Counted from the first letter of the stretch, positions 20,325-27,184 are shown. The stretch is 32,000 nucleotides of DNA from Clostridium disporicum (GCF_001405015.1 NZ_CYZX01000017.1:43552-75551); one strand, 5' to 3'. The notes: generated from the letters alone by a model not told the origin. Program-made: numbers and translations.

Positions 20325-21581
20325 ATGGATTCTTGTCCAGAGAGAATAATATTTCATATTGATGTTAATTCTGCATACTTATCTTGGACTGCAGTTAAAC
20401 AATTGCAGTATGGCGAAAATGATATAGATATTAGAACTATACCTTCTATTATTGGTGGAGATGGAGAAAATAGGCATGGAATAGTGTTGGCAAAATCAAT
20501 ACCAGCTAAAAAGTATAATATTCAAACAGGAGAATCAATAGCAGAATCTTTAAAAAAATGTCCTAACTTAAAGATATATCCCCCAGATTATAATTTGTAT
20601 ATGAGGTGTAGCAATGCTATGGTTGAGCTGTTAAAGGAATATACCCCAGTAATACAAAGATATTCAGTAGATGAAGTATTTATGGATGTGAGTCATTTTA
20701 AAGATAAGTATATGGAAAAAGCTTATGAAATAAAACTTAGGATAAAGGAAGAGTTAGGATTTGCAGTAAATATAGGTATTAGCCATAATAAATTACTTGC
20801 TAAAATGGCTAGTGACTTTAAAGAAAAGGACTCTGTTCACACCCTTTTTAAAAATGAGATTAAGGATAAAATGTGGCCACTAAATATACGGGATTTGTTT
20901 ATGGTTGGAAAAGTTACAGAAGCCAAGTTACTTAAGTTGAATATTAATACAATAGGAGAGCTTGCTCAATATAATCTAGAGTTTCTTAAACCTATTTTTA
21001 AAAGCTATGCAAGTGTAATTCATAATTATGCCAATGGCATTGAAAATTCAGAGGTTAGAGCTAGTAATTATATGGAAGTTAAGGGGATAGGTAATTCAAC
21101 TACTACTAGTAAAGATATATATACAAGAGAAGAAGCATTGAAAATATTATTATCATTAACAGAAACAGCATCTATGAGATTAAGAAAAAATAATAGTATG
21201 TGTAGTTTAATTGCAGTATCAATAAAAACTAATGGATTTTTTAAGTTTTCACATCAAAGAACTTTGAATAATATTACAGATTCAACAGAAGAAATATTTC
21301 ATCAAGTTACTAGTGTTTTTGATGAAATGTGGAATAATCAACCTATTAGGCAATTAGGGGTACGCTTTAGTAATTTATGTAGCAATGAATTTTATCAAAG
21401 AACATTTTTTGATGATAAAAATATAGATAAGAAAAGATCTTTAGATAGGGCTATAGATAACATAAGAGAGCGATTTGGAGATAAAGCAGTATTTAGGTCT
21501 GTATTTATTAGTTCGGATATAAAACCTTTAAGTGGAGGTAATGGAGAAGACGATTACCCTATGATGGGAAGTATATTATAG
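20325..21581 (+). CDS. dinB: Y-family translesion DNA polymerase (Pol IV/DinB-like)
   Basis: IFHIDVNSAYLS corresponds to the catalytic D-x-N/D-xFYxS region, SVDEVFMD to the SIDE motif, and there is ISHNKLLAKMAS. The length is 418 aa. AGGGAG lies upstream. Confidence 0.9.
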   Translation: MDSCPERIIFHIDVNSAYLSWTAVKQLQYGENDIDIRTIPSIIGGDGENRHGIVLAKSIPAKKYNIQTGESIAESLKKCPNLKIYPPDYNLYMRCSNAMVELLKEYTPVIQRYSVDEVFMDVSHFKDKYMEKAYEIKLRIKEELGFAVNIGISHNKLLAKMASDFKEKDSVHTLFKNEIKDKMWPLNIRDLFMVGKVTEAKLLKLNINTIGELAQYNLEFLKPIFKSYASVIHNYANGIENSEVRASNYMEVKGIGNSTTTSKDIYTREEALKILLSLTETASMRLRKNNSMCSLIAVSIKTNGFFKFSHQRTLNNITDSTEEIFHQVTSVFDEMWNNQPIRQLGVRFSNLCSNEFYQRTFFDDKNIDKKRSLDRAIDNIRERFGDKAVFRSVFISSDIKPLSGGNGEDDYPMMGSIL

Positions 21582-21590
21582 GAGATGATT

Positions 21591-21854
21591 ATGGTGAAAG
21601 GATTAGCAAAAACTATACAGATGATAGCTTGGTTTGACGAAAACGGTAAGATAAATCCTATAAAGTTTAAATACGAAGAAGAGAATGAAGGGACTAAGGT
21701 AATCTGTATAAATAATGTTTTGAATAGAAGTTTTGAAAAATTAGCAGGAAATCTTATGTGGAAATTTACTTGTACCAGTATTGTTGATGATACAGAATAT
21801 ATCTATAATATAAAATATGATTTAATAAATTGTAGATGGCTATTACTAAGTTAA
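21591..21854 (+). CDS. Hypothetical small protein, translationally coupled to dinB
   Basis: The ORF is 87 aa from ATG 21591. AGGAG overlaps the dinB stop codon and lies 6 nt upstream. I recognise no motif. There is no terminator between it and its neighbours. Confidence 0.6.
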   Translation: MVKGLAKTIQMIAWFDENGKINPIKFKYEEENEGTKVICINNVLNRSFEKLAGNLMWKFTCTSIVDDTEYIYNIKYDLINCRWLLLS

Positions 21855-21874
21855 TTAAAGGAGGTTATGAAAAA

Positions 21875-22171
21875 ATGAGATATTTTATAGTAGAGGGAAC
21901 AATAATAAATGCGGATTTAATGAATGATAATATTATGAAAAAACATATGGAGTATTCACAAAAAGCAATGAATGAAGGATTAATATTAATGTCCGGTCTT
22001 AAAGAAGATATGAGTGGTGGATTATTTATTATGAAATCAGAGTCTATTGAAAAAGTAGATAACTATTTATGTAATGAACCATTAAAAGTTAATGGAATAC
22101 AGGAGTACAAGATAGTAGAGTTTTCGCCACATTATTTTAATCAATCTCCTAATGACTGGTTTAATAAATAA
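21875..22171 (+). CDS. YciI-like (DGPF domain) protein
   Basis: It is 98 aa from ATG 21875, with AAAGGAGG upstream. MRYFIVEGT...HMEYSQKAMNEGLILMSG...GGLFIMK.ES...VDNYLCNEPL...G resembles the YciI fold pattern. Confidence 0.7.
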   Translation: MRYFIVEGTIINADLMNDNIMKKHMEYSQKAMNEGLILMSGLKEDMSGGLFIMKSESIEKVDNYLCNEPLKVNGIQEYKIVEFSPHYFNQSPNDWFNK

Positions 22172-22236
22172 TTAAAAAACTATAAACATATATATTAATT
22201 AGAAATAAGAAGTTTCAAAATTATTAATGTATATAA

Positions 22237-22265
22237 TTGACAGGTAATATTTAAAGTTATATAAT
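22237..22265 (+). promoter_or_regulatory. Consensus sigma-A promoter for the T-box leader
   Basis: TTGACA (22237-22242), a 17-bp spacer, then TATAAT (22260-22265). Confidence 0.8.
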
Positions 22266-22271
22266 TATGAC

Positions 22272-22572
22272 AAATAAAGGCTATGAAGAGAAGAGTAGTT
22301 ATGAAGTAATATACAGAGAGTTTCCGTTTGGTGGAAGGAAATTATGAAATCATAATGAAACAAGGCTTGGAGCTGCATATGGGATCTTATAAAATTGTTT
22401 ATAAGTGATAATATGACGTTTGTTCACGTTACAGAACTAGAGTATGATTTGACCTTTTAGGAAGATGGTGTACTTGATGAGATTAAAATGGTGACATTTT
22501 AAGAATAAAGGGTGGTACCGCGAAATTGAACTTTCGCCCCTGTGGAATTTACGTTCTACAGGGGCTTTTTTG
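22272..22572 (+). promoter_or_regulatory. T-box riboswitch leader (tRNA-sensing transcription attenuator)
   Basis: It has the GA/K-turn ATGA (22283-86), AGAGTA (22292-97), the AG bulge AGAGAG (22315-20), the distal loop GGTGGAA (22330-36), an F-box-like hairpin GTTC-ACGTTACA-GAAC, and the T-box sequence AAAGGGTGGTACCGCG (22507-22522). The terminator is CCCCTGTGGAA...TTCTACAGGGG (22537-22564) plus T6. Its 5' arm overlaps the antiterminator 3' strand CGCCCC. Confidence 0.92.
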
Positions 22573-22634
22573 ACGTTAAAAATACTATACTCGAATAACT
22601 TATAAAATTTAGAAATCTTAAAGGAGAGATTATT

Positions 22635-24602
22635 ATGATAAGTAAAAGATTAGATAGAAATGAAAGACCAATATTTCCTAAAAAAGCTGTTATTACTGCT
22701 GGAATGCCATATGGAAATAAAAATCTTCATTTTGGTCATGTAGGAGGAATGTTTGTCCATGCAGACATATTTGCAAGATTTTTAAGAGATAGAATAGGAA
22801 AAGAAAATGTAATCTTTATATCAGGTACAGATTGCTATGGTTCTCCAATTCTTGAAAGCTATAGAAAATTAAAAGAAGAAGGCTACGAAAATACTATAGA
22901 AGATTATGTTAGAGGAAATCATTTAAGTCAAAAGAAAACCTTAGAAGACTACAATATTAGTCTAAATATTTTTGGTGCTTCGGCTCTTGGAAGAACAGGA
23001 GAAATTCATGAGGAAGTATCAGAATATATCTTTAACACTTTATTTGAGAATGGATATATAAAAAAGATGTCAGCATTGCAATTTTATGATGAAGAAAAGA
23101 AAACTTTTCTTAATGGAAGACAAGTAGTTGGTAAATGTCCAATTGCTGGGTGTAACTCTGATAAAGCCTATGCGGAAGAATGTTCATTAGGACATCAATA
23201 TATGGCATCGGAATTAATTAATCCAATTAGCACGTTGTCAGGTAAAAAACCAGTACTAAAAAGTGTAGATAATTGGTATTTTACTTTAGATGATTCAATG
23301 GATGTTATGCAAGAGCTTAATGAGTTTTTAAAGAAAAATACTAATAGAAGAAAATATGAAATAAAAGCTATAGAAGAATTTTTAAAGAAACCAGTGATTT
23401 ATGTTCCTAGAAAATATATTGACAATTTAGCCGAACTGGAAGCTAAATTCCCAAATCATGAAACTATTGATGAAGAGAAAAAGTCATCAATAACTTTTGT
23501 TTTTGAACATTTAGAAGATAGAGATAGAGCTAAGGAAGTATTGGAAAGTTTAAGTATTAACTACACTAGTGGTAAGACTTTAGTACCTTTTAGATTATCA
23601 GGGAATATTTCATGGGGAGTAAAGGTTCCAGATAGAGATGATTTAAAGAATTTAACATTCTGGGTGTGGCCTGAATCTTTATGGGCGCCAATATCATTTT
23701 TAAAAACTTACTTAGAATCAAAAGGTAAGGATGCAGAAGAATGGCGTAATTGGTGGGAATCAGATGATTCAATGGTTTATCAATTTATAGGTGAAGATAA
23801 TATTTATTTTTACTCTATTGCAGAAATGGCAATGTTTATAGGTTTAAAAATAGCCAAAGGAGAAAGTGTGGATGTTACTAAAGTAAATCTACCACATATA
23901 GTTGCTAATAAGCATATTTTATTTATGGATAAAAAAGCAAGTAGTAGTTCGGAAATAAAGCCTCCAATGGCAGATGAATTATTAAAATATTATACTAAAG
24001 ATCAATTACGTATGCACTTTATGAGTTTAGGCTTATCATCAAAGAGTGTTGGATTTAAACCACAAGTTTATATGAAGGAAGAGGAAAAAGTAGGAACGGA
24101 TCCAGTATTAAAAGAAGGAAACCTTTTAACAAACGTATTTAATAGACTTATTCGTTCATGCTTCTATACATTGCAAAGCTTAAATGAAGATATACCTACT
24201 GAAGAAGTAAGTATAAAAATAAAAGAAATAACAGAGAAGGCAGTTTTTGAATACGAAAGACATATGTACAATCAAGATTTTCATAGAATAGCATATGTTT
24301 TAGACGAATATATAAGAGAAATAAATAAGTATTGGACTAACAATATAAAAAATGATGAATTAAAAAGACAAGTAGTTTCAGATTGCTTCTATGCTTGTAA
24401 AGTTATAGCTATGCTAATACATCCAATAGCTCCAGAAGGATGTGAAATGTTTAAGGATTATCTAAATATTGGTGATGAAATATGGAATTGGGATAATATA
24501 TTTGAACCTATTAATTTCTATTTTAAAGATAGTGAAAATCACAAATTTAAATTCCTAGAACCAAAAGTAGATTTCTTTAAGAAAATGGATTATCAATATT
24601 AA
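22635..24602 (+). CDS. Divergent class Ia aminoacyl-tRNA synthetase of MetRS architecture (MetRS-like paralog; amino-acid specificity uncertain)
   Basis: MetRS-like blocks are present: MPYGNKNLHFGH (PYxNGxxHxGH), SGTDCYGSPI (GTDEHGxxI), a Cys/His knuckle (GKCPIAGCNSDKAYAEECSLGH), FIGEDNIYF (FxGKDIxxF), DQLRMHF, and NVFNRLIRS (NLxNR). However, KMSKS is KASSS (23934-23948) and several MetRS-invariant residues differ (see findings). AAGGAGAG lies upstream. Confidence 0.8.
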   Translation: MISKRLDRNERPIFPKKAVITAGMPYGNKNLHFGHVGGMFVHADIFARFLRDRIGKENVIFISGTDCYGSPILESYRKLKEEGYENTIEDYVRGNHLSQKKTLEDYNISLNIFGASALGRTGEIHEEVSEYIFNTLFENGYIKKMSALQFYDEEKKTFLNGRQVVGKCPIAGCNSDKAYAEECSLGHQYMASELINPISTLSGKKPVLKSVDNWYFTLDDSMDVMQELNEFLKKNTNRRKYEIKAIEEFLKKPVIYVPRKYIDNLAELEAKFPNHETIDEEKKSSITFVFEHLEDRDRAKEVLESLSINYTSGKTLVPFRLSGNISWGVKVPDRDDLKNLTFWVWPESLWAPISFLKTYLESKGKDAEEWRNWWESDDSMVYQFIGEDNIYFYSIAEMAMFIGLKIAKGESVDVTKVNLPHIVANKHILFMDKKASSSSEIKPPMADELLKYYTKDQLRMHFMSLGLSSKSVGFKPQVYMKEEEKVGTDPVLKEGNLLTNVFNRLIRSCFYTLQSLNEDIPTEEVSIKIKEITEKAVFEYERHMYNQDFHRIAYVLDEYIREINKYWTNNIKNDELKRQVVSDCFYACKVIAMLIHPIAPEGCEMFKDYLNIGDEIWNWDNIFEPINFYFKDSENHKFKFLEPKVDFFKKMDYQY

Positions 24603-24658
24603 AAATTATGTTTTAGAATGTTAATATATTTTTCTGTTAATTTCCATTAGAGTAAAGT

Positions 24659-24707
24659 GTTGATATGTTATACTTACACAGATAAATATTAAGTATAATA
24701 TATCAAC
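24659..24707. terminator. Long hairpin between the convergent synthetase and hxlR genes
   Basis: An 18-bp stem pairs GTTGATATGTTATACTTA with TAAGTATAATATATCAAC (one mismatch) around a 13-nt loop. Neither side has a clean U-tract. Confidence 0.5.
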
Positions 24708-24725
24708 AGTATCTAATAAAGAAAG

Positions 24726-25052
24726 TTATTTATAATTAGCTTGATAGTTTTTTCCCCAAGCTTCCATTACATTAATAACAGGTCTTAATGAGTTTCCAAG
24801 AGCACTTAAACTATATTCAACTCTAGGGGGTACTTCAGGATATGCAGTTCTGATTACAATACCATCTTCAACCATAGACTTTAAAGATTGAGTTAATACT
24901 TTTTGGCTAATTTCTGGTATACTTTTTTGAAAATCACTATATCGTCTAGTATCAGCTAAAAGATCTCTTAATATTAATAGCTTCCATTTACTATCTATAA
25001 GTCTAACAGTTGTTGCAACTGGACAAAGGGGTAGTTCTTTTTTTGTCTTCAT
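24726..25052 (-). CDS. HxlR family transcriptional regulator
   Basis: CPVATTVRLIDSKWKLLILRDL, the winged helix, and PPRVEYSLSALG are typical of HxlR. I prefer the start at MKTKKELP (25052), which has GGAGG upstream, over the track's start at 25085. Confidence 0.9.
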   Translation of the reverse strand: MKTKKELPLCPVATTVRLIDSKWKLLILRDLLADTRRYSDFQKSIPEISQKVLTQSLKSMVEDGIVIRTAYPEVPPRVEYSLSALGNSLRPVINVMEAWGKNYQANYK

Positions 25053-25221
25053 AAAATTTTTCCTCCAAAGTAAGTAAAATATCAATTCATACCAAAAGGT
25101 GCGTAGCGAACATAAAAGTGCCTACTTTCCAAGCTTTTACACCTAATGATATTATAATGACAGTTAAGAATGCATGCAACTATTAATGAATTTATGATTT
25201 AAATATAGGGAGAAGATAAAA

Positions 25222-25815
25222 GTGAATGAAGTAATTAAATGTATAAAGGAAAGACGTTCAATTCGTAAATATTTAAAGAAGCAAATAGAAGAAGATAGAC
25301 TAGACGAAATTTTAGAAGCTGGTATTTATGCTCCTAATGCAGGTGGGAGACAATCGGCATTAGTTGTAGTATCACAAAATGAAGAAGTTAATGAAAGACT
25401 TGGAAAGATTAATCGTGGAGCTTTTTATGAAAGTGTTCCGAAGAATGCAAAATTAGGAGTATCTAAAGACCAACCTAGTATTGCAGATGATAGAAATATA
25501 AAAAGTGCTTTTTATGGAGCACCAACAGTTATAACATTATTCGCACCTAATAACTATCTATACACATATGCTGACTGTGCTGTTGTAGCACAAAATATTA
25601 TGATATCAGCACATTCATTAGGAATTGGATCTTGTATGGTTGGACGAGCTGATAAAACTTTTGAGGGTGAGTATGGGAATGATATTCTGAAAGAGTGGGG
25701 AGTAGAAGAGGGATATATTCCAACATATCATATTGCTCTTGGATATTATGAGTGTGAATTACCACAGGGGAAGGAGAGAAAAGAAGGGAGAATAAAGAAA
25801 ATCTTAAATAAATAA
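25222..25815 (+). CDS. Nitroreductase family protein
   Basis: IKERRSIRKY, APNAGGRQS, and GIGSCMVG are nitroreductase motifs. The start is GTG, with GGGAGA about 9 nt upstream. It is divergent from hxlR. Confidence 0.88.
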   Translation: MNEVIKCIKERRSIRKYLKKQIEEDRLDEILEAGIYAPNAGGRQSALVVVSQNEEVNERLGKINRGAFYESVPKNAKLGVSKDQPSIADDRNIKSAFYGAPTVITLFAPNNYLYTYADCAVVAQNIMISAHSLGIGSCMVGRADKTFEGEYGNDILKEWGVEEGYIPTYHIALGYYECELPQGKERKEGRIKKILNK

Positions 25816-25948: not shown

Positions 25949-27055
25949 CTATTCTAAAGTTCTTCTAGGAATTCTAAGCTTAATTTCATTTTCAATTTGT
26001 GAAAGCATTTTAGAATCCTTAGGATCTACAAATAGACATGTATAACCTTCATTTCCAGCTCTTCCGGTCCTACCAATACGATGAATATAAGTTTCAACAG
26101 ATTCAGGAATATCATAATTATAAATATGACTAGCCCCACTAATATCTAATCCACGAGAGGCTACATCAGTTGCAATTAAATATTGTATATCAGCATTTTT
26201 AAAAGATTTCATTATTCTTTCTCTTTTAGATTGTTGGATATCGCTATGAATTACCTTGCAGTTATATCCACGTCTATGCATAACAATTTCAAGCTCATCA
26301 GCTCTTCTTTTTGTTCTGCAGAATATTATGGCCATAAAAGGATTATCTTGATCTAAAACTTTGCATAAAGTTTCTCTTTTTTCTCTATCAATTGTTTCAA
26401 CAACTTCTTGTTTAATATTAGTTAAAGTTACTTCCTCCTTTTTTACAGTTACAAGTACAGGGTCTTGCATATATCTATAAGCAAGTTTTTTTACAGAAGC
26501 ATTCATAGTAGCAGAGAAGCATAAAGTTTGCTTCTTTTTAGGAGTTTCTTTCATTATAGTATCAATTTCATTTCTAAATCCCATTAAAAGTATTTGGTCA
26601 GCTTCATCTAATACTATAGTTTTTAAAGTACTTAAATTTACAGTTTTTCTTTTAAGATGATCTAAAAGTCTTCCAGGAGTTGCAATTATAAGCCTTATAT
26701 TTCCTTTTAACTTTTTCATTTGGGACCCAATATCTTTACCACCATACATAGATAAAACACCTATATCCTTAGCAAGACTTAATTTATTTGCCTCTTCAGT
26801 TATTTGAATTGCAAGTTCTCTTGTAGGAGAGATTATTAAAGCTTGAATGCCATTAGAAGTTAATGATATATTTTCAAATATAGGTAATAAAAAGGCTAAG
26901 GTCTTTCCAGTACCTGTTTGAGCTTCAGCTATAACATCTTTTTTATTTAAAATATGTATTATACTATCCTGTTGAATTGGTGTTGGAGTTTTAATTCCAG
27001 ATTTCTTTAATATATTTTCTATATCGTTACTAATTCCTAAATCTTTAAAGTTCAT
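25949..27055 (-). CDS. DEAD-box ATP-dependent RNA helicase
   Basis: It has the Q motif (F.DLGIS...PTPIQ), AQTGTGKT, PTRELA, DEAD (VLDEADQIL), SAT, and HRIGRTGRAG. I prefer the start at MNFKDLG (27055; GGAAGG upstream) over the track's start at 27088. Confidence 0.93.
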   Translation of the reverse strand: MNFKDLGISNDIENILKKSGIKTPTPIQQDSIIHILNKKDVIAEAQTGTGKTLAFLLPIFENISLTSNGIQALIISPTRELAIQITEEANKLSLAKDIGVLSMYGGKDIGSQMKKLKGNIRLIIATPGRLLDHLKRKTVNLSTLKTIVLDEADQILLMGFRNEIDTIMKETPKKKQTLCFSATMNASVKKLAYRYMQDPVLVTVKKEEVTLTNIKQEVVETIDREKRETLCKVLDQDNPFMAIIFCRTKRRADELEIVMHRRGYNCKVIHSDIQQSKRERIMKSFKNADIQYLIATDVASRGLDISGASHIYNYDIPESVETYIHRIGRTGRAGNEGYTCLFVDPKDSKMLSQIENEIKLRIPRRTLE

Positions 27056-27184
27056 ATTATTATACCTTCCGTTTTTCTTAAGTTTCATATCATTATAACA
27101 TATTAACGTAAAATATATGTAAAGATAGATTATTTATTAATCCGCAATAAAAAAATTTATTTATGACATTATTCACTAGTTACT

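Follow-up and report, generated by a model that had tools for sequence, protein, structure and literature searches.

The stretch of DNA analysed here, referred to below as the window, comprises 32,000 nucleotides of Clostridium disporicum (GCF_001405015.1, NZ_CYZX01000017.1:43552-75551). Between positions 22,237 and 24,602 it holds a promoter, a T-box leader, an intrinsic terminator and an open reading frame (ORF) for a 655-residue class I aminoacyl-tRNA synthetase homologue with the fold of methionyl-tRNA synthetase (MetRS). The Specifier of the leader is a glutamine codon, and the protein belongs to a discrete family with sequence signatures of its own, which in two settings is linked to a gene for a Glx synthetase. 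As set out below, this MetRS-derived enzyme may act on tRNAGln.

The promoter agrees with the sigma-70 consensus at 12 of 12 positions and is the sole perfect site within 22100-24800. The leader downstream of it matches the Rfam T-box model RF00230 over its full length (model positions 1-219) at 22274-22544 on the + strand, with 110.5 bits against a gathering score of 93 (E 7.6e-24). It is the sole Rfam family found in the 32 kb window, and 14 orthologous leaders score between 96 and 121 bits with the same model. An earlier reading of this DNA, the original prediction, had described the leader as a complete T-box, and this is confirmed: the K-turn, the AGUA/GAA S-turn of the Specifier loop, the AG bulge, the distal loop, the UGGN sequence and a competing terminator are all present. 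The 5' arm of the terminator overlaps the 3' strand of the antiterminator, and there is no other terminator-like site in the region.

Stem I was parsed in 35 leaders, namely that of the window and those of 34 of 80 genome loci, and covariation was followed in an alignment of 29 distinct leaders, with slid 3' partners as the control. Paired cells make up 91.9% of Stem I in this alignment, against 36-48% when the partners are slid, and 16 of the 21 pairs show compensatory changes on both sides. At the base of the stem the pairs G4-C102 and C5-G101 are invariant. The lower-helix pair 12-97 is G-C in 17 leaders, A-U in six and G-U in six, and this covariation fixes the boundary of the Specifier loop. 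Further up, every one of the 7+3+6 pairs of upper Stem I varies, 15 of them having changed on both sides. The covariation thus upholds the hand fold proposed earlier, which paired GTTATGA (22298-304) with TCATAAT (22350-56) and GAG (22288-90) with CTT (22366-68). The 59-nt spacing and the 3' side of the Specifier loop (GAAACAAGG, 22357-65) had also been read correctly; indeed, all the sequence features listed in the original prediction lie where it had placed them.

The Specifier itself is apparent from the six bases that follow GAA in the 35 leaders. These are ACAAGC (16 leaders), ACAAGG (7), ACAAGT (4) and ACAGGC (3), with the rarer forms GCAAGG (2), GCAAGC (1), ACAAGA (1) and CCAAGC (1). 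The second frame gives CAA in 32 leaders and CAG in three, that is, glutamine throughout, and the next base is always G; it is the only frame constant in amino acid, the first varying between ACA, GCA and CCA (Thr, Ala, Pro) and the third between AAG and AGG (Lys, Arg). This frame had not been considered in the original prediction. Two of the CAG leaders, at loci L026 and L058, score 109 and 103 bits with RF00230, and the third, L059, does not differ from L058 over the portion compared. In the Rfam alignment CAA falls at model positions 91-93, with the purine at 94. As a control on this register, two unrelated T-boxes from the fetched loci were aligned, and they hold UGG+A and ACC+A in the same columns. 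The first of these (UGG, Trp; L078, 8043-11053, - strand) precedes a trpXYZ-like ABC transporter composed of a PF04392 binding protein, a permease and an ATPase; the second (ACC, Thr; L025, 10606-10820, - strand) precedes a gene for a 195-residue protein of the 2'-5' RNA ligase/LigT family, an unusual target.

Of the 35 leaders, the window included, 21 have U and 14 have C at position N of UGGN. The discriminator base of tRNAMet and tRNALys is A73, and that of E. coli tRNAGln is G73. A G73 discriminator pairs with both UGGU (by wobble) and UGGC, which fits tRNAGln. The codon usage also resembles that of known glutamine T-boxes, which are rare in TBDB (226 of about 23,500 entries) and are dominated by CAA (215) over CAG (11), in keeping with a preference for specifiers with a 3' A in two-codon families (PMC7778990). 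In the literature we found no published statement of the genes under glutamine T-boxes. Judged from these sequence features, we hold with high confidence that CAA at 22361-63 is the Specifier and that the leader would sense tRNAGln.

It is decidedly unlikely that the gene encodes an ordinary divergent MetRS with AUG at 22355-57, overlapping the top of the loop, as its Specifier. This AUG is followed by A in 29 of the 35 leaders, the protein does have a MetRS fold, and a sister clade that shares its pocket motifs keeps KMSKS. A table based on RegPrecise moreover lists metS3 of C. beijerinckii, which we infer to belong to the present family, under T-box(Met), apparently on the assumption of such a Specifier (PMC3766115). 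However, the upper helix is closed by the A and U of the AUG, which covary with the bases they pair with, and the triplet is replaced in six leaders (by ACG in four, AAG in one and GCG in one) that are intact as leaders. UGGC, found in 14 leaders of which 11 have the AUG, requires G73 whereas tRNAMet has A73, and an AUG reading would abolish the conserved AGUA/GAA S-turn. The protein, for its part, falls far short of the MetRS equivalog cut-offs and is without H301, the second lysine of KMSKS and W461. On conservation, helix covariation and UGGC, AUG was thus rejected as the Specifier, and the covariance-model alignment puts CAA at the codon, in support of the earlier proposal of a non-AUG Specifier and of a paralog derived from MetRS under a T-box for some tRNA other than tRNAMet. 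The RegPrecise-based table has metS3 of both C. beijerinckii and Alkaliphilus OhILAs under T-box(Met), and its Gln column is empty in the Clostridia rows examined (PMC3766115); if metS3 is the present family, this Met assignment is probably wrong. In Additional file 2 of the same source, glnS2 of Paenibacillus sp. JDR-2 stands under a Lys T-box, which could be the same CAA/AAG frame ambiguity.

Barely credible are the threonine (ACA) and lysine (AAG) Specifiers that had been offered earlier, each of which satisfies one of two rules of thumb on the window sequence alone: the ACA frame changes to GCA in three leaders and CCA in one, the AAG frame becomes AGG (Arg) in three and is followed by C, G, U or A with no conserved purine, and AAG is in any case a disfavoured lysine specifier (13% in TBDB; PMC7778990), so that conservation in the 35 leaders speaks for rejecting both.

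The protein is recognised by a single Pfam domain, PF09334 (the class I (M) synthetase domain, 220 bits). It reaches 240.5 bits with PRK00133, the equivalog model for E. coli-type MetRS, against a cut-off of 587; 193.8 bits with the MetRS equivalog TIGR00398, against 336; and 75 bits with PRK12267, which describes the Firmicutes MetRS1 type, against 598. Scores so far below every MetRS equivalog cut-off indicate that the gene is not a recent copy of the host metG, and on sequence grounds the family appears to derive from the E. coli/archaeal type of MetRS and not from the Firmicutes MetRS1 type. An AlphaFold model of the 655-residue protein (predicted local distance difference test score 82.4, predicted template modelling (TM) score 0.85) finds its best Foldseek matches in the MetRS of P. 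abyssi and E. coli (1rqg, 1qqt; TM 0.66-0.79), and all of the top 50 matches listed are MetRS.

Residues were mapped by profile alignment to E. coli MetRS (Table 1). Besides the overall fold, the protein shares with the E. coli/archaeal enzymes HIGH, the alpha-amino-binding Asp, Trp253, Ala256-Pro257, the zinc knuckle and a helical anticodon domain with equivalents of N391 and R395. It departs from them in having KASSS, a lysine in the HIGH loop, Tyr for H301, Phe for Y260, an insertion in the pocket loop and a further module of about 65 residues; it is without the APW tryptophan (Trp461) and a C-terminal tRNA-binding domain, and its gene is predicted to be regulated by tRNAGln, not tRNAMet. 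Neither KMSKS, nor the full methionine pocket (Y15/D52/W253/Y260/H301), nor the complete anticodon triad N391/R395/W461 was found in the protein. PF00749, the domain of canonical GlnRS and GluRS, was not found either, and the Pfam scan of the 655 residues gave no C-terminal tRNA-binding domain, cupin or other fused domain. The module of about 65 residues is modelled as a small beta-alpha-beta-beta-alpha unit that is absent from solved MetRS structures. Both pocket segments are invariant in the family.

Several of these departures had been noted by eye, and the alignment confirms KASSS for KMSKS, Tyr at His301, AEM at the FWP segment, the large insertion, the lack of a C-terminal tRNA-binding domain and the missing PW motif of the anticodon domain. 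The claim of a changed methionine pocket stands in part: the His301 to Tyr and Tyr260 to Phe changes and the loss of the APW tryptophan speak for it, and the arguments from Trp253 and Ile297 are weaker. Trp253 had been thought replaced on the strength of SLWAPISF, but the profile alignment keeps it as W345, with a three-residue insertion, SLW, four residues past it, between E347 (aligned to D255) and A351-P352. The glutamate introduced by AEM is indeed present as E397, but it is not conserved across the family. Two further candidates were rejected: W567 as the equivalent of Trp461, since the profile alignment puts it at Val455, and Asn for Ile297 as a specificity change, since Asn occupies the same position in P. 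abyssi MetRS.

Table 1. Features of the T-box gene in the window, and E. coli MetRS residues with their equivalents in the encoded protein
Feature	Position	Strand	Details
Sigma-70 promoter	22237..22265	+	-35 TTGACA 22237-42, 17-nt spacer, -10 TATAAT 22260-65
T-box leader	22274..22544	+	RF00230; Stem I, Stem II, IIA/B, Stem III, T-box sequence/antiterminator
Stem I base, 5' strand	22280..22290	+	K-turn GC 22280-81, bulge UAU, GA 22285-86, A 22287; lower helix GAG 22288-90
Specifier loop, 5' side, AAGAGUA	22291..22297	+	S-turn AGUA 22294-97; near-invariant in 35 leaders
Upper Stem I	22298..22356	+	Helix 22298-304/22350-56, AG bulge ACAGAGA 22313-19, distal helix 22320-25/22337-42
Distal loop, GUUUGGUGGAA	22326-36	+	Part of upper Stem I
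Specifier loop, 3' side, GAA-A-CAA-G-G (GAAACAAGG)	22357..22365	+	Consensus GAA-N-CAR-G-N, 35 leaders
Specifier codon CAA (Gln)	22361..22363	+	Conserved purine G at 22364
Stem I base, 3' strand	22366..22373	+	CUU pairing with GAG, G, K-turn GAGC
T-box sequence, AAAGGGUGGUACCGCG	22507..22522	+	UGGU 22513-16, pairs with tRNA NCCA end; Rfam alignment
Intrinsic terminator and U-run	22536..22571	+	13-pair stem at 22536-65, 7 G-C
ORF, 655 residues, MetRS-fold class I synthetase homologue	22635..24602	+	Ribosome-binding site GGAG 22623-26; PF09334
HIGH region	22719..22739	+	K29 (22719-21), H32-F-G-H35
Zinc knuckle, single	23136..23195	+	C168, C173, C183, H187; invariant in 32 family members
Insertion of about 65 residues, 252-316	23388..23582	+	Gap against 1rqg and E. 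coli MetRS
Amino-acid pocket segments W345-PES-LW-APISF355 and D388-N-I-Y-F-Y393	23667..23813	+	Map to E. coli W253...Y260 and D296...H301
KASSS for KMSKS, K434-S438	23934..23948	+	Invariant in 32 members; aligned to E. coli and P. abyssi KMSKS
Anticodon-domain helix N503...R507	24141..24155	+	E. coli N391, R395; invariant columns
E. coli Y15 to Y26			Kept
E. coli D52 to D66			Kept
E. coli W253 to W345			Kept
E. coli A256-P257 to A351-P352			Kept
E. coli N391, R395 to N503, R507			Kept
E. coli Y260 to F355			Changed
E. coli H301 to Y393	23811-13		Changed
E. coli W305 to E397			Changed; variable across family
E. coli KMSKS to KASSS			Changed
E. coli APW (W461)			Absent in profile alignment

The loss of the second KMSKS lysine is accompanied by the gain of another, a pattern absent from the original prediction. 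Every family member has a lysine three residues ahead of the first His of HIGH (PYGNKNLHFGH), at a position that is Gly both in canonical MetRS and in a sister clade that bears KMSKS. The two sites covary: family members combine the HIGH-loop lysine with K(A/I)(S/A)SS, and the sister clade and MetRS combine glycine with K-x-S-K/T-S. The same arrangement is found in ArgRS with a degenerate KMSK, in which a HIGH-loop lysine three residues before the first His substitutes for the lost one (Sekine 2001, as cited in PMC8318970). ArgRS is a different synthetase family, and the compensation proposed here draws on covariation only. Taken together with the invariance across the family of HIGH, D66 and the zinc ligands, the covariation argues that the enzyme is still catalytic. 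By the same token, a catalytically dead pseudo-synthetase serving as a tRNA chaperone, sequestering factor or regulator, to which the lost KMSKS lysine and the several altered pocket residues might point, is very improbable given those invariant residues and a lysine gain that tracks the KMSKS loss.

Close relatives of the protein, at 59-97% identity, occur in Clostridium, Hathewaya, Sarcina, Lachnospiraceae, Epulonipiscium and other Clostridia, with a Ruminococcus member more distant at 53%; their source annotations read 'class I tRNA ligase family protein' or 'methionyl-tRNA synthetase'. A scan of GTDB with one genome per species found relatives in at least 582 species, mostly Clostridia, and a search of 1.8 billion cluster representatives delineates a discrete family with outliers at 39-53% identity. 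Beyond it lie the sister clade, at about 30% identity (proteins P0157, P0165, P0187 and P0191), and then ordinary MetRS. The sister clade keeps KMSKS and the HIGH-loop glycine and has DNxYFY, WPESL and the insertion of about 65 residues in common with the family. These shared features therefore predate the loss of KMSKS and are by themselves no proof of a specificity other than methionine. The three sister-clade loci L085, L086 and L093 (P0157, P0187 and P0165) are housekeeping contexts in Gram-negative-type genomes, and in two loci the sister clade adjoins a gene for Leu/Phe-tRNA-protein transferase.

Clustering of 801 ORFs from 81 loci yielded no conserved neighbour of the T-box gene, which thus behaves as a stand-alone housekeeping-type gene. 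Two linkages to Glx synthetases were observed. At L088 (3-1415, + strand) and L089 (1-447, + strand) a GluRS-like gene and the beginning of the gene for a divergent family member (P0130, 41-44% identity, KAASS) overlap by 4 nt, which suggests translational coupling; the GluRS-like protein is of the bacterial type, with PF00749 and PF19269, and scores 221 bits with gltX_bact, under the cut-off of 290. In a Clostridium metagenome-assembled genome the MetRS-like gene with its T-box has, 2 kb away, a gene for canonical GlnRS (L051, 5816-7477, - strand). This GlnRS scores 736 bits with the glnS equivalog and is 56% identical to E. coli GlnRS; no T-box at the Rfam gathering score was found upstream of it, despite an intergenic region of some 390 nt. 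Canonical GlnRS is common in Clostridium. A further translation context is found in contigs resembling Ruminococcus champanellensis and in one other lineage (L081-L084, 1746-2901, + strand), where the gene directly follows rpsF-ssb-rpsR after a gap of 100-170 nt that is without a T-box. Lachnospiraceae orthologues are likewise mostly without a T-box.

By analogy with the established T-box mechanism, uncharged tRNAGln would pair through its UUG anticodon with CAA at 22361-63, and its free NCCA end would pair with UGGU at 22513-16. The antiterminator would then be stabilised over the terminator at 22536-71 and RNA polymerase would read into the ORF; charged tRNAGln would be unable to stabilise the antiterminator and transcription would stop. 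The enzyme itself would act on tRNAGln and raise the supply of Gln-tRNAGln when charging falls. Direct glutaminylation seems the most likely reaction, and the T-box-controlled copy would be a starvation-induced auxiliary to GlnRS where the latter is present.

This arrangement recalls lysK, thrZ, tyrZ and ileS2 of B. cereus, each a T-box-controlled second enzyme beside a housekeeping synthetase without a T-box, as at L051. Indeed, every T-box-regulated LysRS is a second enzyme beside a housekeeping synthetase without a T-box (Foy et al., PMC2916919). Unlike these cases, in which the auxiliary enzyme belongs to the family of its own amino acid, a MetRS fold is here combined with a tRNAGln sensor. 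The enzyme would share its tRNA with canonical GlnRS and GluRS2, the two known bacterial means of loading tRNAGln, to which the linkages at L051 and L088 also point; however, homology to these is limited to the class I Rossmann core (PF09334 as against PF00749).

This uncharacterised family probably works in glutamine-tRNA metabolism, and we hold with moderate confidence that the enzyme arose in the MetRS lineage and was co-opted for tRNAGln. The full proposal of a tRNAGln-controlled, MetRS-derived, GlnRS-like enzyme acting on that tRNA, with substrate tRNA, amino acid and reaction all deduced, stands at about an even chance. More tentatively, and at somewhat less than an even chance, the family may constitute a third route to bacterial Gln-tRNAGln: a MetRS-derived synthetase or tRNA-dependent amidating enzyme that has switched from methionine to glutamine in both amino acid and tRNA, has moved its catalytic lysine from KMSKS to the HIGH loop and is switched on by uncharged tRNAGln across hundreds of Clostridia from gut and soil.

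A number of observations weigh against a GlnRS-like enzyme. The amino-acid pocket is not readable from sequence, and the equivalents of N391 and R395, which in MetRS contact the CAU anticodon, are retained. The sister clade, which has the same pocket motifs and an unaltered KMSKS, may serve its hosts as their genuine MetRS, and this would make those motifs compatible with methionine. As at least one genome (L051) already has a canonical GlnRS, a second one is not obviously needed, and the GluRS linkage comes from a single lineage. A T-box is absent upstream in 46 of the 80 genome loci, and ten T-box-less Lachnospiraceae loci scanned against Rfam have no riboswitch of any kind before the gene, lysine and glutamine riboswitches included. 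Finally, no tRNAGln gene was found in the window or the 80 loci scanned, in which the sole tRNA is one tRNA-Leu, so that the discriminator argument draws on textbook values.

Of the other explanations, the one that survives best, doubtful as it is, retains the link to tRNAGln and changes the chemistry: the enzyme would glutamylate tRNAGln in the manner of GluRS2 and feed GatCAB, or, as a new kind of tRNA-dependent amidotransferase, would activate the side-chain carboxylate of Glu-tRNAGln by adenylation and amidate it. The glutamine Specifier fits this, the anticodon-binding domain is kept, and a GluRS-like gene appears to be translationally coupled to a family member; with a canonical GlnRS at L051, a route that does not need free glutamine would be the more sensible one under glutamine starvation. 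Amide synthetases derived from aminoacyl-tRNA synthetases do exist, AsnA being the example. However, D66, the residue that in MetRS binds the alpha-amino group of the free amino acid, is invariant, and so is the HIGH/Lys set that catalysis by alpha-carboxylate adenylation would call for; no linkage to gatCAB was found in 93 loci, and to our knowledge no class I synthetase adenylates a side chain or amidates Glu-tRNAGln.

Improbable, too, is a tRNA-independent ligase that boosts the supply of glutamine, for instance an AsnA-like amide synthetase placed under a glutamine T-box as biosynthetic genes are. Such genes are often T-box targets, among them the synthetase-like asnA under Asn T-boxes in the compilation cited above (PMC3766115), and the MetRS-like domains of hydrazine synthetases are tRNA-independent ligases with altered amino-acid specificity. 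Yet the present protein keeps its anticodon-binding domain complete, N503 and R507 being conserved, and has no fused cupin or other domain, and its gene context is one of translation genes, not metabolism. Hydrazine synthetases are cupin-fused, tRNA-free enzymes of secondary metabolism and far more distant in sequence, their like among the PDB entries scoring far lower than true MetRS; the present gene has neither a cupin nor, in 81 loci, a conserved neighbourhood.

Synthetase families are usually taken as fixed to one amino acid, and the known exceptions (class I versus class II LysRS, GluRS2, SepRS and PylRS) have each changed the view of how the code evolved. The literature yielded no described T-box-controlled MetRS paralog or MetRS-like GlnRS, only hydrazine synthetases and general reviews. 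If a MetRS-derived enzyme is indeed tied to a glutamine-tRNA sensor, this would add a new instance of a specificity switch from one synthetase family to another, in no fewer than 582 species that include common gut Lachnospiraceae and Ruminococcus, and the annotations 'methionyl-tRNA synthetase' and 'class I tRNA ligase family protein' would need correction, as would the probable RegPrecise Met T-box entry. The loss of the KMSKS lysine and gain of one in the HIGH loop also offer a clean natural experiment in class I catalysis.

The remaining observations concern the surroundings of the gene. Upstream in the window, 20325-22171 (+ strand) is occupied by a gene for a Y-family DNA polymerase (IMS domains), then an 89-residue ORF without a Pfam match and an ORF with a YCII domain that overlaps; this group stops 66 nt short of the T-box gene promoter. 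Unrelated regulatory RNAs occur in the flanks of other loci, namely an FMN riboswitch (L041, 9828-9942), a c-di-GMP-I riboswitch (L003, 11312-11394) and a RAGATH-18 RNA (L007, 10945-11006). Downstream in the window, at 24726-25815, lies a divergent pair formed by an HxlR-type regulator (- strand) and a nitroreductase (+ strand), followed at 25949-27088 (- strand) by a DEAD-box helicase.

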